From IMG/VR virus record IMGVR_UViG_2880378312_000013: 54,893 nucleotides of DNA, one strand, 5' to 3'. The translations under genes were made by a program, and so were the position numbers. Below are positions 1,043 to 40,825 of the stretch, in pieces. Below the pieces are notes generated by a model. It was not told the DNA's origin and ran no database searches. It saw only the letters and a list, made by a program, of their open reading frames with translations. This DNA comes from a virus. Taxonomy: Duplodnaviria; Heunggongvirae; Uroviricota; Caudoviricetes. Position 1 is the stretch's first letter. Each line of letters begins with the position of its first letter.

Positions 1043-1575
1043 ACCAATAATCGCCACCAACACAATGATTTTAATACATAAATTAAAATAGAAGATTTAA
1101 ACTACACACACCCCTATACACATTGGTGAAGGCGTTCGCTTTCCGCGCATTCTCAAGGCAGAAAAAACTTTTTTTGGGGGAAAACTGTTCATACTACTCA
1201 TTGTGTTTTTTTTCATTAATATTCAAAAAGATATGAAATTAACGATTGATAAGAAGTGAACACTTTACTGTTCACCTTGACTGATTAATAAGTGCATAAA
1301 AACCTAATTTTTGAGCACGGAAGGTATTTGTTCCTTACCCCATTTTTTCTCTTTAGTCCAGTACAACAAAAAATGCGCCCAACAGAAAACTGTTTTGAAT
1401 TTAAATGCAATCGCTTTGTAGTGATTGTAACGTAAGTTGATTTGATGGGTGCGATTTTGTTTAGCGATAATGGTATGTTGTAAAAATCATTTCGTTGCAA
1501 TAAAATTGCATCGCTACATTTTATAGACAATATCAATTAAATTTTAATACTCATTATTAATTTTGAGGCTAACAA

Positions 1576-2532
1576 GTGACTAGTTATTCAAACTTTTCCA
1601 ATCAAATAAAAGAAACCATCAATAATAAATTCGATCATGAAATTCATGATTGGGACATTATAAAAAACTCAATCACAACTTTAATAAATAAAAATATCCA
1701 TGGTGCAGGTAGAAATATCGTTGATTTTATAGATTTAGGTAACTGGGATTTTATTTCAAACTTTTCCTTTGATGACTCTACAAGAAGACTTGAATTAGAG
1801 TGGCACCCCAATGATAAATTCCATATATATATTGAGTCCGTTGTGTTTGTCGAGTTTAATGACACTATATATGCTTTCTTAAAGGGATACTATCACAATC
1901 AGTTATCTCTAAATAGAATATATAATACAAAATGCTCTTCATGTTCATTTGAAAACTCAGGTTCTTATATGGTAGACGTTTATAGAACGGTTAAAAGAGT
2001 AAATGAGACAATCCAGACCCCAAATATAAATTGCTATACTACATGTATTTTAACAAGGCCCGCAAATGGTCATGTTACATCTACAGGCTTCTCACGAAAC
2101 CTCATGGATGCGATAAATATTTCATTAGCAGAGCACAAAATAGCCTCTTTACATAATGAAGTCATGAGTATTGAGGAATATGATCGTGATTCTTTACAAG
2201 AGAAAGGAAATACTGCCAGGAGATATTTAGAATATATTCTCATGCTTGTTAATATTCGTATAATGCATTTAAACAACGTTCAATACCAAGAGCAAATGCT
2301 AGGTAGTTTAGTTTCTGTTATTGAGGCTCTGGACTATGAACCATTAATGAAAAATGATGTTGAAATTACAAAGGACATCCTTAATGCTTGCAGCCACCAC
2401 GGGGGGGTTAGAATTGAAAAGAAAGATGTAATTTTTTCTTTGGAAGTTATTGAAAACTTAATTAAAGCCATAAAGAAAACCGACATAAATAAATTACAAC
2501 TCGATGGGATGTTTAAATCAATTCAAAAATAA
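1576..2532 (+). CDS. hypothetical protein, AT-rich orphan ORF (candidate island cargo)
   Basis: 318-aa ORF (GTG start) with strongly AT-biased codon usage unlike flanking genes; sits between the alpha-like primase and the candidate att repeat; no motif recognised. Confidence 0.5.
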   Translation: MTSYSNFSNQIKETINNKFDHEIHDWDIIKNSITTLINKNIHGAGRNIVDFIDLGNWDFISNFSFDDSTRRLELEWHPNDKFHIYIESVVFVEFNDTIYAFLKGYYHNQLSLNRIYNTKCSSCSFENSGSYMVDVYRTVKRVNETIQTPNINCYTTCILTRPANGHVTSTGFSRNLMDAINISLAEHKIASLHNEVMSIEEYDRDSLQEKGNTARRYLEYILMLVNIRIMHLNNVQYQEQMLGSLVSVIEALDYEPLMKNDVEITKDILNACSHHGGVRIEKKDVIFSLEVIENLIKAIKKTDINKLQLDGMFKSIQK

Positions 2533-2664
2533 ACATCATCTAACAATGAATTAGATGCATTTTCCGCTGACGCCTTAGCATATAACTTTTAAATTTTATC
2601 GATATATATTTTGAGATAATTTCCTGTAGCGGATTTAAGACCGGCACAGCCGGTCTTAGGTCAG

Positions 2665-5055
2665 TTATTTCGCTGCAAACTCATCGCATTTTGGCAACCA
2701 GTCAGCATTGCTTTCCTCTCTTAGGGCCAGATTAGTCTGCATTCCTTGATTGGTCCGTCGTTTCTCATACTGCAGCCCATATTCCTTGAGCATTAACGGT
2801 AGCCCCTTGCCAAACATGGTCAGACTGAGCGTATTTTTATAGCCGTTAGCCTCCATGTAGACCAGATAGGCATGGTAGAGGTAAGTTCGAGGCTGACGTG
2901 GAACAATATTAGCGTTCCCCATAAACATGCCCGTGGTGTCAGGTAGGACCTCAAGGTAGCCGCAAAAATCAAAAGCTGAATCAGCATCACGTTTGATGGT
3001 GAGCGCTTCATCGGAGTTCTGCTGTGACTGAAGCAATGTCCTGGCACTCATTGGGTCGCTGAAACGCTGCATAAGCTGGCGAACAATCACCGCTAGCTCA
3101 CTGGCAATTTTCTCTTTGAGCTGGGTATCGCGTTCCTCCGGGGCTATCTGGTCGGGGAAATGCAGGATCACCCTTCGGCGTGAAACTCCACCACTACGAT
3201 CAGTGAAGCGCATCGGATTATTGTTCACAGCCAGGATGACCGCCGGGATGTGGGTTGAATAGGCGTTCTGATATTTGGGATCAACGGATACCGCATCGCC
3301 GCCAGTGATGGCTTTTAGTCCGGCCCCGTCACCGCTCCACTTTTCCTGGTCGGGAAGTCGAATCAGTGAAAAACCTATTAACGCAGCTCGTTCTCTTGGC
3401 GACTCAAGCATTTCAATGGTTGCCGAGGTCGCGTTATCTTCACCCGCCAGCATGGTTGCTATTTCAGCAAGAATACTCTTTCCACTTCCGCCAGGGCCAG
3501 TGACCTCCAGAAACAGCTGCCAGTCATAACGGTTAGCCAGCACCATAAACAATGCAGCCAGAATAATGTCCCGTTTTTCAGGATTAAAACCTGCGGCACG
3601 ATCCAGCCAGCGCCAGAATGCCGGGGCATGGGTTTCCAGTGACTCACCGTCAACGGGCTGCGTGTAATCCACCTCGCACAGCGTACGTAACCAGTGCTTC
3701 TTATCGTGCGGGCTGAACAATCCTGTCCGGGTATCGAGCACACCGTTGCGAAATCCGATAAGTTGCCGCGCCGGATTCTGCTGTTGCGGAACGATCAGTT
3801 TGAGGGTTTCCACGAGAGACGCAATTTTCGCGGATGAAAAAGGTGCGTCGAGGCGCTGAAACAGCGCAGCGACATCACGGGCAAAATCGGCGTAATAGAT
3901 AACTTTCCAGGCCCCCGCCTCATAGCGTGAAAGGAGCTGCCCGTTCGGGTCTACTGCCAGTGAATTTTTATAGTGATCCACTACCCTCTGCGCTTTTTCG
4001 CTGACGCTCAGCGCGGTAAATTCAGCTTCGCTCATTGTGTCGAAGGGGCTGGCAACAGCTGGTTTTATTACTTCATGAATTGCATGCCGGGTGGCTTCTT
4101 CGCCGTTTTGCGTGAATGCATCGTTCCAGTCACCAAACACAGGCGGGAGCGCCATTGTGCAATTGCAGGCCCCGGTAACAGCTGCGCCCCTTGTTTGCCC
4201 CGCACCGTTGAGATCGCGGTCAGCAGCAATAATTATCTGGTGCGTTGGGTACTCACTGCAGGCAATGCTCGCCAGGGAAAGGAAATTGACGGACGAAAAG
4301 GCCACCATGACAGCATCGCCAGTCAGATAGTTGATAGTAAGTGCGGTGGCATATCCTTCCGCTATCCAGAGCCGTTTGGCTGCTTTGGCAGTACCTTCAA
4401 CCAGGTAAAAGGCATTCTTAACCTGACCGCCTTTAAGGAAGCATTTGCCCCCATTAGCGTTGATTAACTGCAGATTTACCAGCTCTCCATCTGCATACAA
4501 TGGAACGACAAGATCTCCCGCGCGAAATGCCACACCACCGACTTTATGCATAGCGGTTAATTCCCGGCAAGGCAGTGCAGGAAACCCTTTACTCGTCAGA
4601 TAGGCATTGCCAGTGGTCTGGCGGGACTTATCAAACAAACGGGCAGCCAGCACTGCTGCAGCTTTTCTCCCGTCCTCTTTTTCAGGAGAACCAGATTCAA
4701 GCATTCCCTGAGATACTGGCAGCAGGTTTCCGATAATGCCGTTTATTCTGTCTGCCGCTTCACTAATGCCTACATCCAGTACTTTACTTACAAGCGCCAG
4801 GCCATCACCTGCCCCGCACTGGTTACAGAACCACGTTCCCCGCCCTTCCTGGTCATCAAATCGAAAGCGGTCTTTCCCGGCACAGACCGGGCAGGGCTGG
4901 TGCCGATTTTTCAGTACATTTACGCCCAGCGCAGGTAAAATTCTTGACCAGTGACCCCGAGCTGCTTTCTCAGCCTGGCTAACTTTCATTCCTGACATTG
5001 TGCGGCCCTCCTTAGTGCAGCGCTGGTTTGTTGAGGTGACGGGAACAAAGTTCAT
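2665..5055 (-). CDS. P4 alpha-like primase/helicase (zinc-binding primase + D5-type NTPase)
   Basis: CxxC...CxxC zinc motif ([10 protein letters not shown]...CNQCGAGDG) and P-loop GPGGSGKS; true start may be the internal Met (MSGMKVSQ) about 57 nt downstream of the ORF start. Confidence 0.8.
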
Positions 5056-7300: not shown

Positions 7301-8053
7301 ATGACAATCCCAGAACAGAACAATAACCCGATCGTTGAAATTTCTATCCCTGTTTCGACGCAACAGGCGCTTGAGAAAGTGAATGCCACCAAATCTGCAT
7401 GGCTTGAAGCACGTCGTCAGCAAAAAGCGGCAGCGGATAATATTGCGACAATCCGCCAGCGCCGCGCTGAAATGGAAGCCACGACGAACGCCCTGAATGA
7501 GGAGTGGCGCACGCTATTTCGTGAAAGTCAGGGCGTAGTCTCAAAGGAAATGAAAAAACTGCGCACGGAAATTGCGCTGGGACGAGAAACGCTTGAGGAT
7601 TTTGATGAGCTGCTGGCGGCTCAGGAAAGCGAAAATGCACTTTTGCCGCAGGAGGCTGCGGAATTAGCCGGAAAGTATATCCACGCGCACGACACCCTTG
7701 TGGGTATTCGCGCAAAACAAATCTGGGAAGATTTTATGCAGTCGCATGGAAAAGCACTAATCCAGACACTAAGCCTGCTCAAATCAACAATGGGCAGGGA
7801 AGCCAGCGCAGTTGTCGGTGTGGTGCATTCAGTTAATGACCCGGACACACTGCTGAAAGATTTTATTCATAAACATATCACCAGACCGGCTCTGACTAAC
7901 GATGCGATGCCCGAACAGGACCCCGTGTTTAAACTGGCGGGAGTTGCCCCGGATTATGCGGCCCGTCTGGATTTCAGTAATAAACTCTCTCCAGCAGCTA
8001 TGCATAAAATGAAGGTTCGTCAGGAACGTGCTGAGAAGGAGAAAGCAGTATGA
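7301..8053 (+). CDS. Sid-like capsid size determination protein (putative)
   Basis: 250-aa helical/coiled-coil protein first in a sid-psu-delta-like operon; similarity to P4 Sid is from recollection only. Confidence 0.45.
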   Translation: MTIPEQNNNPIVEISIPVSTQQALEKVNATKSAWLEARRQQKAAADNIATIRQRRAEMEATTNALNEEWRTLFRESQGVVSKEMKKLRTEIALGRETLEDFDELLAAQESENALLPQEAAELAGKYIHAHDTLVGIRAKQIWEDFMQSHGKALIQTLSLLKSTMGREASAVVGVVHSVNDPDTLLKDFIHKHITRPALTNDAMPEQDPVFKLAGVAPDYAARLDFSNKLSPAAMHKMKVRQERAEKEKAV

Positions 8054-8601
8054 TGGCCCGAGTCACTCCAGACCAAGCGCTTATCAGTTTTAGAAATGCC
8101 CGTATTCTGTGGGCTGGACATAGTGAGAGCCGAAAAGCCGTTGAACAACAGATAGAATCACTCCTCACTGCCATGGAAAAACCAGCAGATTATGCTCGAC
8201 AGCTCGAATTACAGCGGGAACATCTGGATGTGCTGAAATGGCAAATTAACTGTGCTGCGCGCGAATGCATTTACTCGCAGCATCAACTGATGGAGGCCTG
8301 CACAGAAGACGCTCTCAGCAATTTTATGCAGGCGAATGGAGCAGCCCTGACATCTGCACTGGCTCCGTTCCTGAAGGGGCGCGGAGGGGTTGACGTTGCG
8401 TCCCGTATATTACGCAATGCTCTGGTTCGCCAGCTGGCAATAACACCGCCTGAAATTGCCGGGGATTATCGTATGATTCTGGATGAATCCGGTGTGATGC
8501 CTGACCCCATGATGGTTCGTGATTGCCAGAGCTCTTACACCCCTGCACAACAACTGCGCTTTCAGCAACGTCTGGATTACATTAACGGCATGCAGGAGTA
8601 A
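8050..8601 (+). CDS. Psu-like polarity suppression protein (putative)
   Basis: 183 aa, overlaps the upstream gene by 4 nt; segment FMQANGAALTSALAPFL resembles P4 Psu as I recall it. Confidence 0.5.
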   Translation: MMARVTPDQALISFRNARILWAGHSESRKAVEQQIESLLTAMEKPADYARQLELQREHLDVLKWQINCAARECIYSQHQLMEACTEDALSNFMQANGAALTSALAPFLKGRGGVDVASRILRNALVRQLAITPPEIAGDYRMILDESGVMPDPMMVRDCQSSYTPAQQLRFQQRLDYINGMQE

Positions 8602-8606
8602 TATTA

Positions 8607-8879
8607 ATGGCACTTAAATGTCCCGAATGCGGTACGACGGCACACGCCAGAACCTCCGCCTATGAAGCACCATCGGTTAAACGCTCATGGTATCAGTGCC
8701 AGAATCTTGAATGTTCCTACACATTTACCGCACTGGAAAGTGTGGATACGATAATCATGAAGCCCCGGCGCAATGAACAGGAATCAGAGAAAGCACAAAT
8801 GCCGGAAAAACAACAGCAAACTCTCAATCGCTATGGCTCCGCGTCAAAGCTGTCAAGCCGTCAGCAAATTCCTGTCTGA
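8607..8879 (+). CDS. Ogr/Delta-family zinc-finger late-gene activator
   Basis: CPECG...HARTS...YQCQNLECSYTF pattern matches the Ogr/Delta C4 zinc finger. Confidence 0.75.
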   Translation: MALKCPECGTTAHARTSAYEAPSVKRSWYQCQNLECSYTFTALESVDTIIMKPRRNEQESEKAQMPEKQQQTLNRYGSASKLSSRQQIPV

Positions 8880-8900
8880 TTAGCAAAAAAAGCCCACGTA

Positions 8901-8927
8901 ATCCCGGTCCAGTACTGGGATTTTTTA
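8901..8927 (+). terminator. possible intrinsic terminator after the delta-like gene
   Basis: Short hairpin (atccc...gggat around palindrome ccagtactgg) followed by a T6 run; weak stem. Confidence 0.35.
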
Positions 8928-9288
8928 CGCCTTTTCCCTGGCTGGCCTGAGAGCGCATGAGTGCATGTCTATAGCGCATGAAAACGCATGATTCTCATGC
9001 ACCATTTTTGACGCGAAAGCCCTTGTGTGGTGGCTTCTGAGACGATTTGCGGAATGCATGAAAACCAGTCTGTTAAGCGAAGCGAGCAGGCGTGGGGGGC
9101 TGCGCGCGCTAAGGGGTTAGATTATAAAATATCAAACGCCGGTGAGATCCATTATTGTGGAACCACCCGAAGGAAGTGTAGAGGCGAAAGTACCCAAAAT
9201 AATTTTGCAAATTATTTAGAAATGAACTGAGCGCTCGAAACGAAATATAATTTCGAGCACCCCAATTAGCAGTTATATTTTTAATGTA

Positions 9289-9855
9289 TTAAACAGGATA
9301 AAAACCAGAGCTTCCATTCTTATTTAAGTTATGGATTTTATTTGCATCATTAATTTTTATTTGGAACGTCGGACCTTTATTCTCAAGAATTACAATCTGG
9401 AAATTATAGTCCCTTTTGATTAATGCGTGATAAAATGAATCACTGAGACTGACGCTATTAACATCCGATAGAGAACCCCCTCTATCTTTATCAAAGTGCG
9501 TCACTAATGGACTATCAAGCACAACAAATCCAATGAATGGATTCCCTTTTCTTGATAAAAATTCCGCAAAGCAAATGGTAAATATAGCATGCATTACTGC
9601 ACGGGTACCTTTACCAAACATTCCTCGGCGTTTCCCATTGATATTAAAGTCATATGTATCTTCGTCAAATCGCACTTTGTTATCTTTAGAATTTTCAAAA
9701 TTTATATCATTCAAAAAGTCTTGCATCGCTATTTCTATATCATACAAATCAGCTACTGTTAAGGAGTCAAAGTCCTCGGCGGAGTATTTAAGTTCGTCAA
9801 CATCATCTTCTTTATCTTGTAATGAAGATAGAATGCTATGTTTTGTGTGATCCAT
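9289..9855 (-). CDS. C-terminal head segment of an SMC-like ABC ATPase (Walker B-like region)
   Basis: 188 aa; hydrophobic strand followed by Asp (FIGFVVLDSPL) resembling Walker B but without the canonical Glu; start overlaps the upstream stop as TAATG. Confidence 0.55.
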   Translation of the reverse strand: MDHTKHSILSSLQDKEDDVDELKYSAEDFDSLTVADLYDIEIAMQDFLNDINFENSKDNKVRFDEDTYDFNINGKRRGMFGKGTRAVMHAIFTICFAEFLSRKGNPFIGFVVLDSPLVTHFDKDRGGSLSDVNSVSLSDSFYHALIKRDYNFQIVILENKGPTFQIKINDANKIHNLNKNGSSGFYPV

Positions 9856-10445
9856 TAAAAGATTGTCTTTATATTCATAAAGTGATTCAAGAGATGAATG
9901 TATTGTTTTATATTTTTATCTTCTAACGTCTTAAAATCACTTTTTTCTGATTGATAAATTTCATTAACATCATTTTTTCTTAACATAATTAATTCATGTT
10001 CGCGAACATTAGATCCGATTGATTCAATTAATCCTTTCAGCTGGCTTTTGATTTTCAATTTTTCTGCATTACACGACAAAAAACAATCATCATATGATAT
10101 TTCATTTTCTTTTTTTTGCGGTGTATTACAGAACTCACAATAAATATCTGCAAAATTATTTAAATAGAAATTCGCCTGTGATACAACATCTATTCTTTGT
10201 AGATCTATAAAGTATTGGTCTTTAAGAAGACTAAATCTTTCAATGAGTAATGATAAGTATTTTTCCCTGTCACTGATTGAATATAATTCATCACTTAACT
10301 CTTTTAATAATTGCTTCTTATCATCAAGTGCATCAACAATACCTTTCAATATATCTTTCGATGATTCAATATCTTGCTCTACTTTCTCAAGTTCTCTTGA
10401 AACAATGACTTGATCATATTCAGGATAAATTAATTGCGCTTTCAA
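9855..10445 (-). CDS. coiled-coil middle segment of the SMC-like ABC ATPase
   Basis: 196 aa, highly charged heptad-like sequence, TTG start; in the same frame as the upstream ORF and separated from it by a single TAA. Confidence 0.55.
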   Translation of the reverse strand: MKAQLIYPEYDQVIVSRELEKVEQDIESSKDILKGIVDALDDKKQLLKELSDELYSISDREKYLSLLIERFSLLKDQYFIDLQRIDVVSQANFYLNNFADIYCEFCNTPQKKENEISYDDCFLSCNAEKLKIKSQLKGLIESIGSNVREHELIMLRKNDVNEIYQSEKSDFKTLEDKNIKQYIHLLNHFMNIKTIF

Positions 10446-10475
10446 TTCCTCATAAATATTTGCAATTTGATTTTT

Positions 10476-11135
10476 TTAAAAATATCTTGCTTTTTTATTT
10501 GGTTTTTCTGCTAAGGAGTTAGTATCATCTCTCTGAGTTAAAAGGAATTTAAATTCAGACTTTCTTTTTGTCTCCTCGCTAGGAATATCAGAAAGAATTA
10601 ACGACTTCTCAGTTAACACTCTTAATTCATCAATACAAAAAAATTCAAAAACATTATTAAGATTAAATTTATGAAGAGTATTACTTAAGTTTGTTCTTAC
10701 TTTAGCCTCTTTGAAATTCAACCTACCATAAAAGTATGATGAAAAACTCTTTTTAGACGAAGCACTTTTGGAAAAAACCATCAACAGATTAGCTTCACTA
10801 ACATTTTCAATGCTCGAATCATATAATCTGTAATGGGCGCTATCCTGAAGAGACCTCTCAATTGTCATTACCCTACCTTGAAAATTAAATTCCAGATAGG
10901 CTAAATCATAACCTTGAGCATGATCGATATCTTTATTTTTTAGTTTTTCACTCCCTAATAAATATCGAATCAAATAATATATGTATGTTTTTCCAGAGTC
11001 AGAACCACCATATAAAATAGTCAATTTAGAACCAAATTCAATTATAGCATCTAATTTATTGAATCCGGTTACCTTTATTTTTCTGAACGTAAAAAAATTG
11101 TCATTCATAATTAAATTCCATATCATATTTGCCAA
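10476..11135 (-). CDS. N-terminal head segment of the SMC-like ABC ATPase (Walker A)
   Basis: FRKIKVTGFNKLDAIIEFGSKLTILYGGSDSGKTYI matches the N-terminal strand plus P-loop of SMC/Rad50/RecF-like ATPases; likely true start at MNDNFF. Confidence 0.65.
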   Translation of the reverse strand: MANMIWNLIMNDNFFTFRKIKVTGFNKLDAIIEFGSKLTILYGGSDSGKTYIYYLIRYLLGSEKLKNKDIDHAQGYDLAYLEFNFQGRVMTIERSLQDSAHYRLYDSSIENVSEANLLMVFSKSASSKKSFSSYFYGRLNFKEAKVRTNLSNTLHKFNLNNVFEFFCIDELRVLTEKSLILSDIPSEETKRKSEFKFLLTQRDDTNSLAEKPNKKARYF

Positions 11136-11574
11136 TTTTATTTTTTATAATTGATTGCAACTGCTCATCAGGAATATCACTATATAACTTAACCACCAAA
11201 TTTATATTATGCTCCATCTGCGCAACATATTCATTATGTAGAGAATTTGTAAATGCATATGTTTTTTCAGAAGCTTTATATACAAAACCACGATGTGTAT
11301 AAATTTTTGAGGCTAGTTCATAGCCTTGCAACAAAGCCAATGATTCTAAAACAATCTCTCGTTTTAGGGCTAACTGAGCATCTCTACGGGGTATTGGAGG
11401 ATGAAGACTAATCTCTTCAGGTAAAAAATCCTTAAGATTTACTAAAATAAAATCAAAACAAATAAGCCGTTCAAGGCTTAATGAAGAAGGATAAATAGCG
11501 ACGAGCACTTTCGCCATTCGACATGCCACTTCTAAACTTGAATTATAAATTCTAACCATTATCTCACCGTCCAA
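11101..11574 (-). CDS. small helical protein, candidate middle component of a three-gene defence cassette
   Basis: 157 aa, TTG start, overlaps both neighbours; position matches LmuC/ABC-3C middle components. Confidence 0.45.
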   Translation of the reverse strand: MDGEIMVRIYNSSLEVACRMAKVLVAIYPSSLSLERLICFDFILVNLKDFLPEEISLHPPIPRRDAQLALKREIVLESLALLQGYELASKIYTHRGFVYKASEKTYAFTNSLHNEYVAQMEHNINLVVKLYSDIPDEQLQSIIKNKIGKYDMEFNYE

Positions 11575-12176
11575 ATTACTTCACCATCATTAACCAAATG
11601 ATGGCATATTCCTTTTTTATCATTTGCTTCACATATTTTTGATAGTACTGAATGTGCAATTGGTGTCAGAACAGCCTGCTTCAAGACTGCATTACACCTA
11701 ATAAATGCATAATTATGGTCTTCATAAAAGACGGGTTCAATTGAAGATGAAATGTAACATTTCAATGCTTTGAATACATCATCTTTAAATACTTCGCGGA
11801 CAAAAACCTCAAGCGAAGATGCAAAATAAAAATCATTTCTACTATTATTAAAGTGTCGTCTGTATGGATCATCAAGCTCTAAGAAAGAACTATAAGTTTT
11901 ATTTCCATGCTCTGAATAGGCTTGAAGCAGTGCATTAACATATACAGACTCTTTTTTTGAATTGTATGTTGGAATTTCATTTGGAGGGATTCTCACGACA
12001 TACAGCTCGTTAAAGTACTTAAAATAAAGGTGTGTATTTGCAATATCATTTAAAATCAATGATAAGGGTAGAGAGTAAAAAATACTAAAATCAAAATCCT
12101 CAATATATTTTTTTATTTCATCATCTAATGGAATATCAATCTTTTTAGTTATTTTTTTGAAATTGCTGAATCCCAT
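11559..12176 (-). CDS. C-terminal part of the candidate effector protein (frameshifted relative to the upstream ORF)
   Basis: 205 aa; overlaps the upstream ORF by 28 nt in another frame across an A7 tract. Confidence 0.5.
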   Translation of the reverse strand: MGFSNFKKITKKIDIPLDDEIKKYIEDFDFSIFYSLPLSLILNDIANTHLYFKYFNELYVVRIPPNEIPTYNSKKESVYVNALLQAYSEHGNKTYSSFLELDDPYRRHFNNSRNDFYFASSLEVFVREVFKDDVFKALKCYISSSIEPVFYEDHNYAFIRCNAVLKQAVLTPIAHSVLSKICEANDKKGICHHLVNDGEVIWTVR

Positions 12177-12565
12177 GAATCAAGGACTGCTTTTTTAAGC
12201 TCGTTTTTATTTTTCAATAAATTAGAAAATGTAGTAGATAAATCATAGGGTGCCACAAAAAAGTACTTCTGAGGGATGGGATAATCACCATTCAGAGTAA
12301 AATAGATAAGTTTTCCAAACTCAACTACAACATCAGAGAACCCTAAACTTTTTTTGTACAGTTTGCATTGATAATTATCCCAAGAATAACCTTCTACGTT
12401 AGGATCCGATTTATATCCAACAACGTCTCTACCTTTATCTCCAGCTCCTCCCAAACGTTCGCTCCACGGGTAATCATCTGATTTACAGACAATAAGCCAA
12501 TCATGGACAAATACCTCCCATTGTTCATCATCCCATGTCAATATTTCCGAAAGTGGTTGAGACAC
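12149..12565 (-). CDS. N-terminal part of the candidate effector, PD-(D/E)xK / Mrr-like nuclease-fold motifs
   Basis: 138 aa, GTG start; GAGDKGRDVVGY followed by YQCK resembles the D...(E/Q)xK core of restriction-endonuclease-like folds; assignment is tentative. Confidence 0.45.
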   Translation of the reverse strand: MSQPLSEILTWDDEQWEVFVHDWLIVCKSDDYPWSERLGGAGDKGRDVVGYKSDPNVEGYSWDNYQCKLYKKSLGFSDVVVEFGKLIYFTLNGDYPIPQKYFFVAPYDLSTTFSNLLKNKNELKKAVLDSWDSAISKK

Positions 12566-12568
12566 AAA

Positions 12569-13801
12569 TTAACTCCTTTTTAGTCTTTCAAATATCAAAT
12601 TACTGTACCAGTCCATCATAGACTTCCTTCCACTAAAATATTGAGCATGGTTATAAGTCCCCCTAATAGAATTTTTATCTACATGAGCCAACTGGATTTC
12701 AATCCAAGCACTCTCAAAACCTTGCTCATGCAGGATTGTAGAAAGGGTATGACGAAAACCATGTCCAGTGACTTTTCCTCCATACCCAATACGCTTAATG
12801 GCTTGATTTATACTCGCTTCGCTCATTGGCCTATTCGGATCGTTCCGCCCTGGAAAAACATAACGATAGTTCCCTGTCATGATCTTGAGTTCATTGAGTA
12901 AATCTACCGCTTGAGATGATAAGGGCACAAGATGTGGCCTACGCATTTTCATCCTTTCAGCAGGAATTTCCCAAATAGCGTTATCCAGATCAAATTCTTG
13001 CCATAATGCCGCGCGTAATTCGATGGTTCTCACACCCGTAATCATCAGTAATTTCGTGGCTATCTGGACAAGCTTACTCCCGGAGTAACCCTCTAAGGCA
13101 CGTAGAAAATCAGGTATCTCATCAGCTTTTAGGAATGGGAAATGATTGGATTGGTGTACTTCGAGAGCGCTGGAGAGATCAGCCGCAGGATTGTACTCCG
13201 CCCTACCCGTTGCAATTGCGTAGCGAAACACTTCGGAGCAACGCTGCCGCACTTTGCGCATTTTCTCCAACGCACCACGTTTCTCAATTTTACGCAGAAC
13301 GTTCAGCAGCTCTAGCGGTTTAATCTCTCCCACAGGCCTTGTTCCGACATAAGGAAAAATGTCGTTCTTAAACGCTTCCATGATGTCTGATGCATATCCC
13401 GCCGACCATTTAGCAGATTTAAGTTGATGCCACTCTCTGGCTATCTTTTCGAAGGCGTTCTCTGACTCTGTTTGCATAGCTAGCTTTTGCTCTTTTCGAA
13501 CCTCACTAGGGTTCTTTCCTTCTGCCACAAGTTTTCGAGCTTCATCACGACGGGAACGAGCATCGGCAAGGGTGATCGTTGGGTAAACACCAAGCGAGAT
13601 CATTTTGGGTTTGCCGGCATAGCGATAGCGGAACCGCCAACTCTTGCTTCCATTAGGTTCTATAAGTAATGACAACCCTAGCCCATCTCCAAATGTATAG
13701 GCTTTAGCTTCAGGCTTAGCGCGGCGAATCTGCATATCGTTTAAAGGCATGTGTATAGGAATCCAGACCGAACAGGAACATATACACAATCCTATACACA
13801 T
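12569..13801 (-). CDS. P4-type tyrosine integrase
   Basis: 410-aa ORF with C-terminal catalytic region (HGFRHT...Y); sits next to the partial tRNA-Thr repeat, co-oriented with it; probable start at MPLNDMQ. Confidence 0.9.
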   Translation of the reverse strand: MCIGLCICSCSVWIPIHMPLNDMQIRRAKPEAKAYTFGDGLGLSLLIEPNGSKSWRFRYRYAGKPKMISLGVYPTITLADARSRRDEARKLVAEGKNPSEVRKEQKLAMQTESENAFEKIAREWHQLKSAKWSAGYASDIMEAFKNDIFPYVGTRPVGEIKPLELLNVLRKIEKRGALEKMRKVRQRCSEVFRYAIATGRAEYNPAADLSSALEVHQSNHFPFLKADEIPDFLRALEGYSGSKLVQIATKLLMITGVRTIELRAALWQEFDLDNAIWEIPAERMKMRRPHLVPLSSQAVDLLNELKIMTGNYRYVFPGRNDPNRPMSEASINQAIKRIGYGGKVTGHGFRHTLSTILHEQGFESAWIEIQLAHVDKNSIRGTYNHAQYFSGRKSMMDWYSNLIFERLKRS

Positions 13802-13912: not shown

Positions 13913-13958
13913 TGGTGCCGATAATAGGAGTCGAACCTACGACCTTCGCATTACGAAT
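13913..13958 (-). repeat. 46-bp direct repeat of the thrW 3' end (att site shared by both elements)
   Basis: tggtgccgataataggagtcgaacctacgaccttcgcattacgaat is identical to the 3' part of the intact tRNA-Thr at 53450-53495, then diverges. Confidence 0.8.
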
Positions 13959-14233
13959 TATAAGAATCCGCTTCTAATTCAAAGCATTACCCCATCAACA
14001 CTGCGCTCACACGTCCCACCACATCAAAACATGTAAAGCCTTGCAAGCCATTGCGAGGCCTTATGTGTCTCAGTTTTGTCCCACCTTGTATTACGACTTG
14101 CATAGCCAATGAAGATAAACGTGACGACAAACGGCGCAGCAGTCTTCTTTTCTTTCACGACTTCTCCAGCATGCATACCTTTCTGCCATGACTGAAGTGA
14201 ATGCCTGTTATGAGCGAGGATTGGCCCAGATGA

Positions 14234-14671
14234 ATCGCCCTGGACTGTTGCGATCGTGAAGCCATAGACTGGGCCGCAAGCACGGGAGGTTACGATAAAG
14301 CGACAGTGCAGGATGTCATGTTAGGAGCGATAGAAAAACGCTTTGGCGATAAAGTACCGGAACAGTCCATCCAGTGGCTGACAGATAACGGTTCAGCGTA
14401 TAGAGCGCATGAAACACGGCAGTTCGCCAGAGAGTTGAATCTGGAGCCCTGCACAACGGCAATCAGCAGTCCTCAGAGTAATGGAATTGCAGAAAGGTTC
14501 GTGAAAACGATGAAGGAAGACTATATCGCGTTCATGCCGAAACCGAATGTAAGAACGGCATTGCATAATCTTGCAGTGGCGATCGAACATTACAATGAAA
14601 ACCATCCGCACAGTGCGTTGGGTTATCGCTCTCCGCGAGAATATCGACGTCAGCGGGTAACGTTAACTTAA
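14234..14671 (+). pseudogene. IS2-like (IS3 family) transposase orfB remnant
   Basis: Translation [23 protein letters not shown]...[14 protein letters not shown]...[14 protein letters not shown] matches the integrase-core C-terminus of IS2 InsD as I recall it; in-frame stop upstream and no orfA. Confidence 0.6.
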
Positions 14672-14712
14672 GATACACCCCCTGTCTGGAAATAAGGGGG
14701 CAAGAACAATGA

Positions 14713-15465
14713 TCAGATTCCCTGGTGAGTAAGAATTTTACTTTCTGAACTCCTCTGAGAGTATTGACTTGGAGAAACACCAAAATAACGTCTAAATACA
14801 TAAGTAAAGTATGAGACACTGGCATAACCACAGACCTTAGCTACTTTACTAATAGGATAACAACGAGTGCTGAGTAAATATTCAGCCATTTGCATCCTCT
14901 CATCAAGTATGATCTTACTGAATGATACCCCCTCTTCTTTCAATTTCCTCTTTAGTAAACTTTCGCTGAGATATAATCTTGATGATATATCCTTAAGACG
15001 CCATGGTGCAGATAAATCCGTATGAATAATCGTTTTAACTTTAGCCCCTGTGCTTTTCAAACATCCAAACAGAAATACTCCAAATTGTTTTTCAGAAGAA
15101 AATGCAGAGAGACATGTAAAAGCAATAGACTCATCAAAAATTTCTATGTATTCAGCACAGTGATTAGCCCAACTAATTAATCCTTTAATTAAACTGAAGT
15201 CAGCAAAGTTTATTTTTAAATAAGATGGATATTCCCTACAATCAGAAATATCCCTTAAGTTATTAGCTTTCAAATAGCGACTAATAAACTCAGCGCCAAA
15301 ATCCGCCACTATCACTCTTTCAGGATATGTCAGGAAAAAATCTCTAGAGCTAGAGTCGACAAGTACAGATGAACCTCTCTCCAGAAACACACTCTCTTTT
15401 CCGAAATAAACATCAAAGGACTCCAAAATCAATATAACTGAACATGTAGTTGCCATATCATCCAC
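14713..15465 (-). CDS. AraC-family transcriptional regulator
   Basis: 250 aa, C-terminal AraC-type HTH (ISKVAKVCGYASVSYFTYVFRRYFGVSPSQY); gene is markedly AT-rich. Confidence 0.8.
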   Translation of the reverse strand: MDDMATTCSVILILESFDVYFGKESVFLERGSSVLVDSSSRDFFLTYPERVIVADFGAEFISRYLKANNLRDISDCREYPSYLKINFADFSLIKGLISWANHCAEYIEIFDESIAFTCLSAFSSEKQFGVFLFGCLKSTGAKVKTIIHTDLSAPWRLKDISSRLYLSESLLKRKLKEEGVSFSKIILDERMQMAEYLLSTRCYPISKVAKVCGYASVSYFTYVFRRYFGVSPSQYSQRSSESKILTHQGI

Positions 15466-16038
15466 CCAATTTAACTGAAACCAGGATGAAGTATATGTAT
15501 ATAAAGTTCACTTTGCCAAACTTCAGTATAAAAAACCACTAAAAATAGGGTGTGATAAAAAATACCGTAACAATAAAGCAAAGGATTATAAATTCCGTTA
15601 CAGTTACAAATGATACTCAAGAAACAATTCCTTAGGAAAAACTTATTTACAGCCAATAAGTAAGACACTTATATGATATCAAGTTTTCATAAAACATAAC
15701 TAGGCTAAATAGCTGCGCCTAATACCGCTACACTTTTGCCAGCCCATGTTTGCCTCCGGGTATTGACCCCTTCTCTACGCAACTTCAGTTCCCACCACCA
15801 ACTTTGCGGCAGCTTTGTAGGATCAATGTCTAAAAGAATAATGGTGACCGATAAGAAAACGACTGAATAACTGCAGATTTTCGCTCGAAACCTTCCTGTC
15901 AGATCCATAGCGAATCAAGTGCTGAATGTCACAGTATCGAACAGAAAACAGTGACGATCTAACCCTTCAAGAATATTCTACGATTGTTCTGTTTAGGAAA
16001 AGCAAGGCGGGAAGTCGGGAGATAAGTCATTGATAAAG

Positions 16039-16104
16039 TGGCGGAGAGAGGGGGATTTGCCCCCCCGGTAGAGTTGCCCCTACTCCGGTTTTCGAGACCG
16101 GTCC
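16039..16104 (-). other. partial tRNA-Ser(CGA)-like 3' fragment (relic att site)
   Basis: Reverse complement reads ggaccggtctcgaaaaccggagtaggggcaactctaccggggg..caaatccccctctctccgcca, the anticodon-to-3'-end part of a serU-type tRNA; 5' third absent. Confidence 0.6.
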
Positions 16105-16184
16105 AATCATCAAACGAAACATAAAATTAATTCACATTATGAGGAAAAGTATCTTTTTTGTACTATGTAAATTCAAAGACTTAG

Positions 16185-17054
<870 letters not shown>

Positions 17055-17114
17055 GTCTTTAAGTGATAAGCATAAACCGCAGCACGATCTTCTTGCATAC
17101 GACGTGCTACGGTT

Positions 17115-17714
17115 TCATTTATCTCCGACCGGAAACTTCTTATACAGTGTCGATATACCAACATCATAGATGATCGCCACCTTTTGGCGAGGAACGCCTG
17201 ATGCAATTAATCGCCCGGCCTGCGCCCATTGTTCTGGTGTAAGTTTGGGACGACGTCCACCAATTCGTCCCTGTGCGCGAGCTGCTTCCAGTCCAGCTTT
17301 TGTTCGTTCAACAATCAGTTCACGCTCCATTTCAGCCAGGGCACCCATCACATGAAAGAAAAAGCGCCCCATTGGGGTACTGGTATCAATTGAATCCGTC
17401 AGACTACGAAAGTTGATGCCTCGTTCGCGCAACTCCTCCACCAGCACGACAAGATGCCGCATACTGCGCCCCAGTCGGTCCAGTTTCCAGACCACCAGCG
17501 TGTCACCTGCCGATAATGTCCTGAGCAGCTTTTTCAGTCCTGGTCTGTCGGACTTTGTACCGCTTATCTTGTCTTCAAAAATCAGCTCACATCCTGCACA
17601 CTCCAGCGCATTACGCTGTAATTCCGTATTCTGGTTATTTGTTGATACGCGGACATAGCCAATAAGCATGAGCATTCCCCTGAGTAAAAACCGGGGATGA
17701 TGCCAGTTAGCCAT
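17115..17714 (-). CDS. serine DNA invertase (Gin/Pin/Hin/Cin family)
   Basis: MLIGYVRVSTNNQNTELQ...LVVWKLDRLGRS...GRIGGRRPKLT are hallmark resolvase/invertase motifs; real start at the internal MLIGYV. Confidence 0.9.
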   Translation of the reverse strand: MANWHHPRFLLRGMLMLIGYVRVSTNNQNTELQRNALECAGCELIFEDKISGTKSDRPGLKKLLRTLSAGDTLVVWKLDRLGRSMRHLVVLVEELRERGINFRSLTDSIDTSTPMGRFFFHVMGALAEMERELIVERTKAGLEAARAQGRIGGRRPKLTPEQWAQAGRLIASGVPRQKVAIIYDVGISTLYKKFPVGDK

Positions 17715-18218
17715 AATCTCTGCATTTTCTTAAACGTTGGTTTGGGAGAAGGCTCTGCATTACCTGTTGGTGTGCCTGTTCCATGGCCTTCAGCCACACC
17801 GCCAACAGGCTGGCTGAAATGCAACGGTGCGGCTTTTTCTGCTGAAGAATACCCGGAACTGGCAAAGGCTTATCCGACAAATAAATTGCCTGATTTACGT
17901 GGTGAGTTTATTCGTGGCTGGGATGACGGGCGCGGTATTGATGCAGGACGTGTTTTATTGAGCATTCAGACAGGGATGCTGGAAAAACACCGCCATATTG
18001 TTGTTGCCAATGATGGTTACGACACAAAAGATGAATGGGAACTGGCTACGATTTTCAAAAAGACATACACACAAGGACGGGGACTTGATGCCACAAATAC
18101 AGGAGGGAGTCTGATCCCATCACCGACACTTCATTCACGAGGGAGTATCGGTAATACTGGCGGGAGTGAAACCCGTCCACGAAATATTGCATTTAACTAT
18201 ATCGTGAGGGCTGCATAA
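17697..18218 (+). CDS. alternative tail fibre C-terminal segment (silent orientation, no own start)
   Basis: Encodes LPVGVPVPWPSATPPTGWLKCNGAAFS...; begins at the crossover site and would fuse to the constant fibre N-terminus after inversion. Confidence 0.7.
   Translation: MMPVSHNLCIFLNVGLGEGSALPVGVPVPWPSATPPTGWLKCNGAAFSAEEYPELAKAYPTNKLPDLRGEFIRGWDDGRGIDAGRVLLSIQTGMLEKHRHIVVANDGYDTKDEWELATIFKKTYTQGRGLDATNTGGSLIPSPTLHSRGSIGNTGGSETRPRNIAFNYIVRAA
17731..17751. repeat. invertase crossover site (right inverted repeat)
   Basis: aaacgttggtttgggagaagg is the inverse complement, with one mismatch, of cttctcccaaaccaaggtttt at 19615-19635. Confidence 0.55.
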
Positions 18219-18820
18219 TGGATAACGCCGTATTAAATAGCGAGCTTATTGCCACGAAGGCGGGGAATATTACCGTCTATAACTATGATGGTAAAACTCG
18301 GGAATATATTTCTACTTCAAATGAATATCTTGCCATTGGTGTCGGTATCCCTGCATATTCCTGTCTGGATGAACCTGGTATACATAAGGCGGGTTATGCT
18401 ATCTGCCGTTCGATGGATTTAAACTCATGGGAATATGTGCCAGACCATCGCGGTGAAATCGTCTATAACACCGAAACGGGAGACGCCAAAGAAATCACAG
18501 CTCCGGGTGATTATCCTGAAAATACAACCACTATCGCCCCGTTAACGCCATTCGATAAATGGGATGGTGAAAAATGGGTGACAGATACTGAGGCACAACA
18601 CGGTGCCGCAGTAGAAGCGGCAGAAGCACAGCGCCAGTCACTGATTGATGCAGCAATGGCTTCCATCAGTCTGATTCAACTGAAATTGCAGGCCGGACGT
18701 AAACCGACGCAGGCAGAAACAACCAGACTTAACGCTGTGCTGGATTACATTGACGCGGTGACGGCAACAGATACCAGCACCGCGCCGGATGTCATCTGGC
18801 CTGAACTGCCGGAGGCGTAG
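18218..18820 (+). CDS. tail fibre assembly protein (alternative orientation)
   Basis: 200 aa; C-terminal region (AVLDYIDAVTATDTSTAPDVIWPELPEA) parallels the other assembly protein on the opposite strand. Confidence 0.7.
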   Translation: MDNAVLNSELIATKAGNITVYNYDGKTREYISTSNEYLAIGVGIPAYSCLDEPGIHKAGYAICRSMDLNSWEYVPDHRGEIVYNTETGDAKEITAPGDYPENTTTIAPLTPFDKWDGEKWVTDTEAQHGAAVEAAEAQRQSLIDAAMASISLIQLKLQAGRKPTQAETTRLNAVLDYIDAVTATDTSTAPDVIWPELPEA

Positions 18821-19244
18821 GCCATTCAATATCTGGCGCACTGGAGGTATCAACCAGCTCCAGTGCATCCAGATAATCCAGCCACAAATTATATTGCGCC
18901 AGTTCCTCACCTTTCAGACGACCAATAGCGGCTTTACCGGGCCATTGTTTACTGTTCATGTATTCGTTGGCCTGGTTAATTAGTAGCTGTCTTTCTGATT
19001 CAGTAATTTCAATAAGTTCTTCATGCGTGGGTGGAGGAATATCTGCCCACGCAGGCAGCCCATCATCTCCGGCAATACGGATTTTTCCTTGTGGCGGTTC
19101 AGCCATAAACTCACTGATAATATTTTGATTTACTTCCTTAGCGTCTGATAAATCCCATCCCTCTGATTTATATTTATCAATCATATCCACAGGGAAAAAA
19201 GCATTATGCCTTGCGCTATAAACATATTCATTCATATAAATCAC
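18792..19244 (-). CDS. tail fibre assembly protein (expressed orientation)
   Basis: 150 aa immediately downstream of the fibre gene; ends LWLDYLDALELVDTSSAPDIEWPTPP. Confidence 0.7.
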   Translation of the reverse strand: MIYMNEYVYSARHNAFFPVDMIDKYKSEGWDLSDAKEVNQNIISEFMAEPPQGKIRIAGDDGLPAWADIPPPTHEELIEITESERQLLINQANEYMNSKQWPGKAAIGRLKGEELAQYNLWLDYLDALELVDTSSAPDIEWPTPPAVQAR

Positions 19245-19255
19245 CCTGAATAAAA

Positions 19256-19918
19256 TTACTCACCAACAGCCCACCAACTGTAATTCATCGATACCGTGTC
19301 GCTGGTTGATGACGTTCTGTAAGCAGAATTAAAGCCGGTTAACGTTGGGCCTTCTGCAGTCATCACGAACCCTCGCCCAGCGCCTAAAGGCGCACCGCCA
19401 TCACCAGAATGAGTAAGCATGGCGCAGTCCGCTTTTTTGGAGAAAGGGATGCTGAATGTAATTCTCATTGTTTGCGTCGATAATGTCGGCGTAACCGCAC
19501 CACGACCATATTGCAGGATTTTCCCGTTGGGTAATTTCATCCATCCATCACCACTGGCAAAAGAGGCCATGTCCGGTATCTGATTTTCCCCTGTCCCCAC
19601 ATCCCGTTTTGCCGCTTCTCCCAAACCAAGGTTTTCGAGAGCCGTTTGCACAGTGCCATCCGATTTGATATCGCCAAACGGATTCTTGCGGCTTAACAGC
19701 AGCGCGCGAAGTGCGGTAAGTAACTGGTCGTGCCGCCCCTTCTCCAGGCTGGCACCGGATGCCTCCACCACGCTGCAAAGTTCCTCCTGCAACATGTCAA
19801 AGTAGTCATCATCCAGATCGGTGGCAGGCGTGCCGGTCTGGGGGTTACCACGGGTAAAACCGTTCTTACCCGCGCCGAACTTATCCTTCTGCGCGGTTTT
19901 CGTGTCTATACGATGCAT
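19256..19918 (-). CDS. tail fibre protein (constant N-terminus fused to variable C-terminus)
   Basis: 220 aa; the crossover site lies inside the gene at the codons for NLGLGE, as in Mu S / e14 fibre genes. Confidence 0.7.
19615..19635. repeat. invertase crossover site (left inverted repeat, inside the fibre gene)
   Basis: cttctcccaaaccaaggtttt; partner at 17731-17751. Confidence 0.55.
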
Positions 19919-19921
19919 GGA

Positions 19922-20506
19922 TTACTCCGGATATTTAAAAATTACGTAGGTTTGCGACGGGCAGAGTTTGTTAAGCACACACTCGACAACGGTGTCACCC
20001 CAGATACGCAGTGCGGAATCACAGGGATCGCCACATGTCATCCAGGTGGAGTTGGTGGTGGCTGGCATGTTGACCTGCCAGTAATACCGCCATTCCGGCG
20101 CATTCACCGCGTCAGTACAGGCCGATGAGCAGGTGAAAGTGCTTTTGTCGTATCGCGTGATGGTGGCATCTGGTCTGCCCAGGGCAGCAAGCTGTGCAAG
20201 ATAAAAATCCTCGTTGATGCCGCCCGCCAGGTTAACCTTCGCATCCAGCCGTTGCTGACGCTGGCGAAGGGTCTGCGTTCCCGCCGGAATACATTCATCC
20301 GGCAGACCGCACAGACGCTCCCAGCGGTTTATCAGTTCAGTGGTGGTGCGAGGATCCAGCTCCCGCATCAGGGCATCCGCACGCTGATGAACACGGGTTA
20401 ATGACGGTGCCGCACCGGCAATCGCCGGATCGCTGGCTGACCACGCCGGACCGGGCGGCAACAGTGCCGATAACAGGCGGATGTAATCATCGTTTGTCAC
20501 GTCCAT
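19922..20506 (-). CDS. Mu gp48-like tail/baseplate protein
   Basis: Position between baseplate J and fibre genes; 194 aa. Confidence 0.55.
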
Positions 20507-21555
20507 GAAATCGTCCCCAGTACCGCCAGTTCGTTTTTCGCAATGGAGATATTGTCCACCGGTGCAAGCAACTGATGGCTGTATTCCCCGTTCGCACCGG
20601 AAATCGCCTCACTGATACGCGATACCTTGAGTTCTCCCTGCGGATAACCATCACGCAGCAGGAACGAACGCAACTCCGCGGTAATGGCAGCCCGTATTTC
20701 CGGTGTGTCCGGCGTCACGCGGATATGAAAATCCACTTTATGCGCCACCGGCCTGAATACATACAAATCAGAGCCTGCCACCGGGGCCAGTGGCTCAATG
20801 TGTTGTCTTGCCGCCGTTTCCGTTGATTCTTCCGGAATGGGATTAATCAGGTCACTGCTGGCAATCATCACACCGACAGTTCCCGTTCCCATCCAGTGAC
20901 GGTATGTCCATGCGCGGGTAATGCCGGGCACTTCTTTAGCCCAGACAACATAGTCCCCGTCAGCCCCGCCCTGAGGCGTCCAGTAATACCGCTCAATGAC
21001 GCGGGCGCGCCACGTTTCCAGATCTTCAGTATCGAATCCGCCAGTCAGGGTATCTGCAACACCGGAAGACGGCAGACCATTCACCGGCGTGACCAGGATT
21101 AATGCCGTACCGTCGTCAGCGTTACCGACCGCGCCTGCACTTGAGCAGGCGATCGGCACGCGCAGGACACCACCGGAGCTGGTTGCATCAGCAGTTGCCG
21201 TGTACTGAACCAGGTCATCGCGCTGAATCACGCTCCCGGCGGTCACCTTCAGGCCATCGCTGACACCTTCCCAGCGCATATACCCGCTGGCAGCCGTGGC
21301 CCCCTTGCGCGGACACCGTTTCATCGCAGCATGTCGCGCCAGCCAGGACTCATCGCACAGGTCAGGCAGCATGTTCATTGCCAGATAATCGATGTAACCG
21401 TAAACCGTATGCAGCGCCGCCGCATACACCTTTGCCCGCACGTCTTCATCCATGCGCCGGAGCGTGTCGCTGACGTCCAGCCTGGCGAATAAATCGTTAC
21501 GGAGCATACTGATATTTTCTGCCAGCGTCGGGCGCTGAAATTCACTGTCCGCCAT
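20497..21555 (-). CDS. baseplate J-like protein
   Basis: 352 aa in conserved Mu-like baseplate gene order. Confidence 0.65.
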
Positions 21556-21970
21556 GCGTTATCGCACTCCACAGATCATCAAAAGAAATCATTACCGGTC
21601 CGTCACGACGCCAGAGGGTGATACTGTTACCCAGCTCATTAATCCCGGTGCGGCGGATATCCAGATCAATACGGGACACCACGCCGTCATCAATCATCCA
21701 TTGCAGGCATTCGCGGATATACCCCCTTACTGTCTGCACCAGCTGATTGGTCAGTTTGCTGCGCTGAAGCAGCCACAGTCGTGAGCCGTAACGGTCATTC
21801 TGTACCGCAGGCCAGGTATCCCCCCACCATCCCATCGGGACGTCGGCGTTGTCATCAGGCTCCGCCCGCCGCCAGGTAAACAGGGAAATCACCACGGCGC
21901 GGGTCAGCGGATCCAGCGGTGCGCTGGCGCAGGTGCGTTTACCGTTCACCGTCAGCCACAGTTCCATCAT
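21542..21970 (-). CDS. Mu gp46-like baseplate protein
   Basis: 142 aa; order and size. Confidence 0.5.
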   Translation of the reverse strand: MMELWLTVNGKRTCASAPLDPLTRAVVISLFTWRRAEPDDNADVPMGWWGDTWPAVQNDRYGSRLWLLQRSKLTNQLVQTVRGYIRECLQWMIDDGVVSRIDLDIRRTGINELGNSITLWRRDGPVMISFDDLWSAITHGGQ

Positions 21971-22515
21971 GCCTCCATCGCTTTATCCGGTTTGTCGGTG
22001 TTACTGCCCTGACCGTTCTCTCTGTGACGATGCCCGTTATAGGCAAGCCGCATCGCTGACATGGTAGTGCCGCTGGAGTCGCACAGGTCTTTCACCTGTC
22101 CTGTCACTTCCAGGTCCATTTCAAAACGTGCTTTAGGTGAATTGCGAAACGTGATCGTTTTACCTGCACCGTCCACCACGATCCCCTCCCGGGTCAGCGT
22201 CACAGACTGCCCCTGATCGTCATAGACAGCCACCTCACCCGTCTGCAACCCTTTCAGGCGGTAGCGCCGGTCCGACACCGTAACAACCACCGCATGAGAA
22301 CGGTCGCCATCCGGAAACAACACCACCGCTTCCGCGCCGCTGTTTGCCCTTGCGGTAAAACCGTAGGGTTCAAGATGTTCAACCCCGGCTTTGGGTTCAC
22401 CGGCAATCAGGGACACATCCACGGTCTGACATTTCGTGGCGGCACTGATGCTTTTCACCACTGCCCGCGCAATCAGGCCGAGAAGTTGTCGCTGCATGGC
22501 TTCAATCGTCCTCAT
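21967..22515 (-). CDS. baseplate assembly protein (gpV / Mu gp45-like)
   Basis: 182 aa; order and size. Confidence 0.55.
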   Translation of the reverse strand: MRTIEAMQRQLLGLIARAVVKSISAATKCQTVDVSLIAGEPKAGVEHLEPYGFTARANSGAEAVVLFPDGDRSHAVVVTVSDRRYRLKGLQTGEVAVYDDQGQSVTLTREGIVVDGAGKTITFRNSPKARFEMDLEVTGQVKDLCDSSGTTMSAMRLAYNGHRHRENGQGSNTDKPDKAMEA

Positions 22516-40749: not shown

Positions 40750-40825
40750 GTCGATCCAGACGAGACGAAAGTTTAAATTCTACCTACTCGCCGAATACCA
40801 TTTCAATGCCACACATCTAAAATTC

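Follow-up and report, generated by a model that had tools for sequence, protein, structure and literature searches.

The A7 run at the junction of the two overlapping open reading frames most probably arose by a single-base deletion, from A8 to A7, that has become fixed and has left lmuA as a pseudogene within a decaying Lamassu operon (probability about 0.9). The window, which is the whole stretch of 54,893 nucleotides that was analysed, is 100% identical to Escherichia coli O157:H7 strains Sakai and EDL933. The earlier note, made from the letters alone, had offered a programmed -1 frameshift, phase variation and a simple homopolymer indel as three readings of this junction. It is the simple indel that is favoured, by the single-ORF orthologues, by the record of an A8 product elsewhere and by the fixation of A7. 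The features of the operon and its lesions are listed in Table 1.

Table 1. Positions in the window of the lmuA fragments, their junction and the neighbouring genes and lesions.
Feature	Position	Strand	Basis and description
Terminator-like hairpin after lmuB, operon end	9229..9262	-	
lmuB, SMC/Rad50-like ABC ATPase pseudogene	9289..11108	-	PADLOC LmuB profile, three fragments
A5 run in lmuB, second single-A deletion, near codon 398	9913..9917	-	Ancestral GAT AAA AAA TAT (D K K Y)
Nonsense codon (TAA, in frame) in lmuB, codon 211	10476..10478	-	TTA in relatives
lmuC, ABC-3C middle component 2	11101..11559	-	152 codons, intact; Pfam MC2 E 6e-30; PADLOC LmuC E 2.5e-36; RefSeq
lmuA 3' fragment = ORF B, -1 frame	11559..12176	-	205 codons; aligned by tblastn with residues 138-335 of Xenorhabdus LmuA
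TAA stop codon ending the upstream frame	12149..12151	-	Direct sequence reading
A7 run, A_AAA_AAA in the upstream frame	12152..12158	-	Direct sequence reading
lmuA 5' fragment = ORF A	12149..12565	-	GTG start, 138 codons; aligned by tblastn with residues 3-138 of Xenorhabdus LmuA
P4-type tyrosine integrase intS of Sp2	12569..13750	-	Pfam Arm-DNA-bind_3, Phage_int_M, Phage_integrase; annotation

ORF A has the Shine-Dalgarno sequence AAGGAG 9 nt upstream of its GTG and ends ...GCA ATT TCA AAA AAA TAA, while ORF B reads the same A7 run in the -1 frame as TTC AAA AAA ATA ACT. The two ORFs overlap by 28 nt (12149..12176), in agreement with the coordinates at which the earlier note had placed a split effector gene, and its account of an upstream frame ending in tca aaa aaa TAA with a -1 continuation through the same A7 was accurate in every detail. 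Direct reading found no Shine-Dalgarno sequence ahead of the ATG of ORF B at 12176 and no restart codon close after the TAA; this ATG is incidental. The heptamer A_AAA_AAA at the junction has the form X_XXY_YYZ in the zero frame and the -1 frame is open downstream. The letters at this site suggest that the A7 run is the place where one A dropped from an ancestral A8, in which TCA AAA AAA ATA would have encoded S K K I. The stop codon stands right behind the A run because the loss of one A turns TCA AAA AAA ATA ACT into TCA AAA AAA TAA.

Joining ORF A to ORF B by adding one A (A8) gave a fused product of 335 aa, in which the junction stretch, ..SWDSAISKKITKKIDIPLDD.., is flanked by lysines. The fused product matched the PADLOC LmuA profile with an E value of 8e-89, residues 3-333 aligning to positions 10-333 of 336 and so covering the whole profile, and the C-terminal domain CTD6 (Pfam PF20282, ABC-3C C-terminal domain 6) was located at fused residues 206-332 (E 2e-29). 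The label of effector gene that had been given to the split ORFs was therefore apt. The N-terminal part contains the motif GAGDKGRD...QCK, which is of the PD-(D/E)xK type, and residues G40, G42, D43, G45, R46, D47, Q66, C67 and K68 are invariant in the LmuA alignment (A1). Judged by these matches, ORF A is predicted to encode a nuclease domain of the PD-(D/E)xK type and ORF B the Lamassu/ABC-3C CTD6, and the two ORFs together make up lmuA, which in a short (type II) Lamassu (ABC-3C) system is the gene for the nuclease effector.

The genes follow one another in the order lmuA-lmuC-lmuB with overlapping stops and starts. The locus contained a LmuA with an effector domain and CTD6 and, adjoining it, the genes for LmuC and LmuB, as in Lamassu systems, but the components were not all intact ORFs, lmuA being frameshifted at residue 138 and lmuB being broken. 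The same gene order with overlapping stops and starts is found in the Vibrio cholerae Lamassu Vc-Cap4 (PMC12663957). Short Lamassu systems with a PD-(D/E)xK (Cap4/Mrr-like) LmuA, of which Vc-Cap4 is an example, also share the N-terminal nuclease joined to CTD6, the MC2 type of LmuC and the SMC/Rad50-like ATPase of about 606 aa as LmuB. Unlike Vc-Cap4, the operon described here has a frameshifted lmuA and an lmuB with both a nonsense codon and a frameshift, and is a relic. A phmmer search returned no solved structure at E <= 0.01, sequence similarity to the solved Lamassu proteins being below this threshold, and a literature search on ECs0290-0293 found nothing. In characterised Lamassu the C-terminal domain of LmuA serves both to dock the protein onto LmuB2-LmuC and to bring about the activating tetramerisation, LmuA alone without LmuBC has no detectable nuclease activity, and over-expressed effectors are toxic (PMC12663957).

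When the LmuA of Xenorhabdus bovienii (335 aa, 67% identity) was compared with the locus by tblastn, the alignment was colinear throughout, and the frame changed only once, exactly at residue 138. lmuA was a single uninterrupted ORF in all 87 orthologous loci examined, which comprised 82 orthologous loci and five closer relatives. One frame ran through the junction in 82/82 of the orthologous loci, the longest A run at the site was 1-6 bases in 81 of these 82, and the A run at the junction is not conserved among orthologues. Chryseobacterium hispalense (L020, ~4400) carries an in-frame A9 (GAA AAA AAA ATT) at the homologous position with the gene intact. Long A runs recur at this site because of a conserved Lys-Lys-Ile motif.

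The five closer relatives have intact lmuA (335 codons), lmuC (152) and lmuB (606), with amino acid identities of 92.5% for the Proteus-type copies and 86.6% for the Pantoea-type copies. Their junction codons are TCA AAG AAA ATA (S K K I) in the Pantoea-type and TCC AAT AAA ATA in the Proteus-type copies. Since the relatives keep single-frame codons at this site, the E. coli allele is most simply derived from TCA AAA AAA ATA (A8) by the loss of one A. All three Pantoea-type copies lie in the same P4-like hotspot slot, adjoining proBA. A tblastn search of plasmids gave no close relative, only a misassembled O157 contig and distant homologues, and a search of phages gave nothing close.

There is also a record elsewhere of the intact allele. 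The exact 335-aa A8 product (P0123) was present on 434 contigs in a collection of 15 billion proteins. A partial protein of identical sequence from Salmonella enterica serovar Brandenburg, ..AISKKITKKIDI, reads through the junction, and the A9-type LmuA product likewise came from Salmonella Brandenburg. The 434 contigs with intact LmuA behave like a stable lineage allele. They probably come from Salmonella or other hosts and are not O157 revertants, judging from the named cluster members and from the count of 0/297 among complete E. coli genomes. The named members of P0123, P0129, P0168 and P0216 point to Salmonella enterica (serovar Brandenburg and others). A stand-alone 188-aa C-terminal LmuB ORF is also present in Salmonella, which suggests that the frameshift in lmuB may be older than that in lmuA and that the element moved between genera. 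Uninterrupted orthologues with a tract of different length had been named by the earlier note as the pattern that would tell against its proposals; that part of its expectation was borne out, by the 87/87 uninterrupted loci together with an intact allele elsewhere that requires A8.

The second broken gene of the operon, lmuB, now consists of three ORFs, 210, 196 and 188 codons long, which give 606 codons once repaired and cover the PADLOC LmuB profile at positions 3-199, 231-412 and 428-608. O55:H7 CB9615 and locus L092 have TTA (Leu) in place of the TAA of lmuB, and the residue aligned to it is Leu in the Klebsiella aerogenes and Xenorhabdus proteins. The frame switch was placed by tblastn between residues 401 and 414 of Xenorhabdus LmuB. 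Restoring an A at the A5 run gave ..LEDKKYKTIHSSLESLYEYKDNLL.., matching ..LEDKKYKTIHSFLESLYEYKDNLL.. of K. aerogenes P0159, and the repaired junction ..EDKKYKTIHS.. agrees with the intact K. aerogenes LmuB. Intact 606-aa LmuB relatives were identified (P0159, P0180 and P0181), with the same length in Klebsiella, Proteus and Pantoea. The exact sequence of the repaired 606-aa LmuB was absent from the protein collection; both repairs are confirmed by the 606-aa K. aerogenes LmuB in the same 90% cluster. In Sakai, lmuB (ECs_0293) had already been recorded as a pseudogene.

The A7 lesion of lmuA and the A5 lesion of lmuB are common to O55:H7 and O157:H7, and are therefore older than the split between them. 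Other lesions are specific to lineages, with the lmuB TAA in O157:H7 and a +T at 10644 and a -A at 9946 in O55:H7 CB9615. Several O157 strains have a change from A8 to A7 at window position 10117 (run 10110-10117), one O157:H7 sublineage has a 1313-bp IS insertion (IS1203/IS3-type) at ~10676, and a 670-bp deletion at ~11146 in an O157:H7 sublineage fuses lmuC to lmuB; these sublineage lesions in lmuB or lmuC were seen in loci L089-L091, L096, L094 and L109. The decay of the Lamassu operon is continuing. The lmuA fragments have almost no further lesions in O157, which is to be expected of so young a clone and is no positive evidence of lmuA decay. With one switch at residue 138, an A8 product on record and further lesions in lmuB and in the sublineages, lmuA has the features of a frameshift pseudogene.

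The distribution of tract lengths bears on two further readings of the run. lmuA was present at an identity of at least 99% in ~297 complete E. coli genomes, all of them of O157:H7 or the O55:H7 progenitor lineage. A 208-nt query carrying A8 never gave a best identity above 99.5% in these, and none of the ~297 genomes therefore has A8. A7 was also read in the 14 draft, viral-contig and metagenome copies examined. A gapped-pattern search returned nothing but A7 copies and the noisy L103 from viral contigs, and nothing but A7 copies from metagenomes; L103 is an IMG/VR copy that reads A8 among ~30 homopolymer indels of a noisy assembly. Loci found through LmuC, which for the Sp2 element occurs in ~15,000 blocks of the protein collection, were O157-type split loci only, and the split lmuA ORFs occurred on >1000 contigs. 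It is highly improbable that the A7/A8 run is a contingency switch through which a costly abortive-infection effector is turned off or on within the population, as in the phase variation that had been proposed, although the A7 (split) and A8 (intact) alleles of an identical protein are both in public data, A6 and A9 variants occur too, and Lamassu effectors are toxic on over-expression. Exact product look-up gave A6 on 15 contigs and A9 on 1 at the junction run; the other A7 run of this ORF, serving as the control run, gave A8 on 5 contigs and A6 on 24. As the junction variants are as rare as those at the control run, switching is no commoner than ordinary indel noise, and the tract polymorphism well above background that marks a phase-variable contingency locus was not found. 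The count of 0/~297 for A8 and these background levels of +/-1 variants speak against phase variation, as does the O55:H7-type allele, seen in split form on 262 contigs and in fused form on 1, a level similar to the +/-1 noise at other runs. Those A8 and A9 members that carry a name come from Salmonella, in keeping with an allele that is stable within a lineage, and lmuB is dead, so an lmuA that was switched on would restore nothing. The locus resembles the contingency loci of Neisseria, Haemophilus and Campylobacter in having a coding-region homopolymer whose length sets the frame, but it differs from them in lacking above-background polymorphism and in its short tract; in E. coli, which is proficient in mismatch repair, a contingency tract would be expected to be longer than A7-A8. 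An error of sequencing or assembly in the homopolymer has a practically negligible probability and was rejected. Homopolymer indels are common in some assemblies, and the pAR-0428-2 and L103 copies are riddled with them, but A7 is identical in ~297 independent complete assemblies of differing technologies, including the Sanger-era Sakai and EDL933, the split ORFs recur on the >1000 contigs, and even the error-ridden pAR-0428-2 copy keeps A7 at the lmuA junction. That copy (L087, NZ_CP044147.1, 29270-38271) belongs to a linear 'plasmid' recorded for O157 strain AR-0428, 46.9 kb in size, that duplicates this chromosomal region, with one-base homopolymer deletions at the window equivalents of 12114, 11958, 11097 and 10117; rather than a true plasmid, it seems to be an artefact of assembly.

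Recoding at the run, programmed or as a 'saviour' of the broken gene, would take the form of a -1 ribosomal slip with TAA in the A site or of a polymerase adding an A, with a low, regulated amount of LmuA being used; we consider this very unlikely. The heptamer is canonical and in the right frame, the -1 product matches the intact orthologues in length and sequence, and frameshifting at AAA-AAA runs is a known event in E. coli (PMC1851650; PMC4066793), C-AAA-AAA in pDEST17 giving 25-60% -1 frameshifting in overexpressing cells (PMC1851650). A/T runs also permit transcriptional slippage (PMC4066793). With a stop codon occupying the A site, slippage in the P site could be promoted at the lmuA run, and some full-length LmuA is probably made from the A7 allele. 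Against this, the run and the split are absent from 87/87 orthologous loci, and the 112 nt downstream gave a folding energy of -10.6 kcal/mol with z = +0.74 relative to shuffles, with no hairpin, pseudoknot or other stimulatory RNA structure. Rfam returned no match and no frameshift element, and direct reading upstream found at best a weak Shine-Dalgarno-like GGGA 15 nt away. Neither a conserved heptamer with a two-frame layout nor a stimulatory element was thus present, and heptamers without stimulators shift only 2-10x a background of ~0.05% (PMC4066793). The motif itself is not beyond chance expectation. lmuA has 33% G+C and 8.6% lysine in an operon of 30-33% G+C, and the repaired gene contains three in-frame A_AAA_AAA heptamers (12158, 12114 and 11958) as well as eight A/T runs that are 6 or more bases long. 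Runs of 7 or more bases occur at 2.44 per kb in the operon and 0.35 per kb elsewhere in the window (7x). The two other heptamers, at 12108-12114 and 11952-11958 (minus strand) in the CTD6-coding part of lmuA, are in frame and involve no frame change, which also counts against recoding at the first. A recoded LmuA would be inactive without LmuBC (PMC12663957), and lmuB would need stop readthrough and another frameshift at a non-slippery site. The programmed -1 frameshift put forward earlier is accordingly disfavoured by the lack of conservation of the site, the z score, the lack of an Rfam element and the two breaks in lmuB. Full-length LmuA is unlikely to be made in any useful amount, and any trace of trans-frame LmuA that may be made would be without a partner. 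There is only a slight chance that a leaky 'saviour' A7 trickles out LmuA in O157:H7, or that an ancestral A8/A7 switch, with lmuB intact, limited Lamassu autoimmunity. The -1 frameshifting of E. coli dnaX and of IS elements (A_AAA_AAG or A_AAA_AAA with stimulators) likewise involves a lysine heptamer in frame with a -1 continuation, but lmuA has neither a suitably spaced Shine-Dalgarno sequence nor a hairpin or pseudoknot, its site is not conserved, and its zero-frame product is a useless truncation and not a second functional isoform. In Citrobacter rodentium the indel-interrupted gene tssM is reportedly rescued by transcriptional slippage, and poly(A) tracts in Buchnera allow interrupted genes to be rescued in the same way. 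Like these genes, lmuA is interrupted at a poly(A) tract that is open to partial rescue by polymerase slippage. The tracts of the slippage-rescued genes are longer than A7 and their pathways are otherwise intact, whereas lmuA has no more than A7 and its partner in the pathway, lmuB, has been independently destroyed. A functional split gene, in which the nuclease and CTD6 domains would be two cooperating polypeptides with a restart at the ATG at 12176, is extremely improbable and was rejected. Both ORFs stay open and are separate proteins in RefSeq, but the ATG has no ribosome-binding site, no restart codon lies near the TAA, every homologue is a single chain and lmuB is broken. In addition, the C-terminal domain must be covalently linked to place the nuclease domains in the active tetramer (PMC12663957).

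The lmuA operon lies within the P4-like satellite Sp2 at thrW, between the P4-type integrase and delta(ogr)/psu/sid, and the stop codon of intS is 3 nt ahead of the lmuA GTG. The region is labelled 'prophage Sp2, P4-like phage' in Sakai, and the integrase, psu, sid, delta, alpA and primase genes flank the operon. In P4-like satellites the slot between psu/delta and the integrase is known as a hotspot for defence genes (Rousset et al. 2022, PMC9122126; PMC13586616). Sp2 is like other P4-like elements in carrying its cargo in this slot, and it is there that the intact relatives lie in Pantoea-type P4-like elements. Recognisable defence pseudogenes make up <1% of the pseudogenes in P4-like satellites (PMC13586616). 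Compared with the usual cargo, the Sp2 Lamassu is an uncommon decayed one that is fixed in a whole pathogenic clade, and the hotspot (window 7301-13750) is a clade-wide counter-example to the reported rarity of defence pseudogenes (PMC13586616). The lambda-like prophage Sp1, also at thrW (window ~13930-24500, Sakai 300042-310627), is heavily degraded: it contains a partial IS3, and its integrase gene intD and its genes O and P for replication bear pseudogene annotations. Taken as a whole, the thrW island is a graveyard of mobile elements. Patches of low G+C (31-40%) were also seen outside the operon, at window positions 1001-3000, 15001-16000 and 40001-41000.

The history of the locus can be proposed as follows. 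One A would have been lost from the A8 of lmuA, by replication slippage as the likely mechanism, so that the N-terminal 138 aa, with the PD-(D/E)xK nuclease domain, were parted from the CTD6 at the C-terminus. The normal translation product of lmuA would then be a truncated, non-functional nuclease domain, because CTD6, the docking and tetramerisation domain, has been cut off. The lesion in lmuA dates from before the split of O55:H7 and O157:H7 and has become fixed in the clade. lmuB has suffered a second, clade-wide single-A deletion and, in O157:H7, the TAA, with sublineages gaining deletions and an IS.

For the organism the biological weight of the finding is small: O157:H7 and O55:H7 carry a dead Lamassu in Sp2, and for this reason defence-system finders should not count the Sp2 Lamassu as active. 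The locus also provides a caution for genome scans, since in AT-rich, lysine-rich cargo a slippery heptamer followed by a stop codon is the expected scar of a one-base deletion and not a sign of recoding. What is mildly unusual is that a defence pseudogene has persisted, while still decaying, through the O55:H7 to O157:H7 radiation, as such relics have been reported to be rare (PMC13586616).
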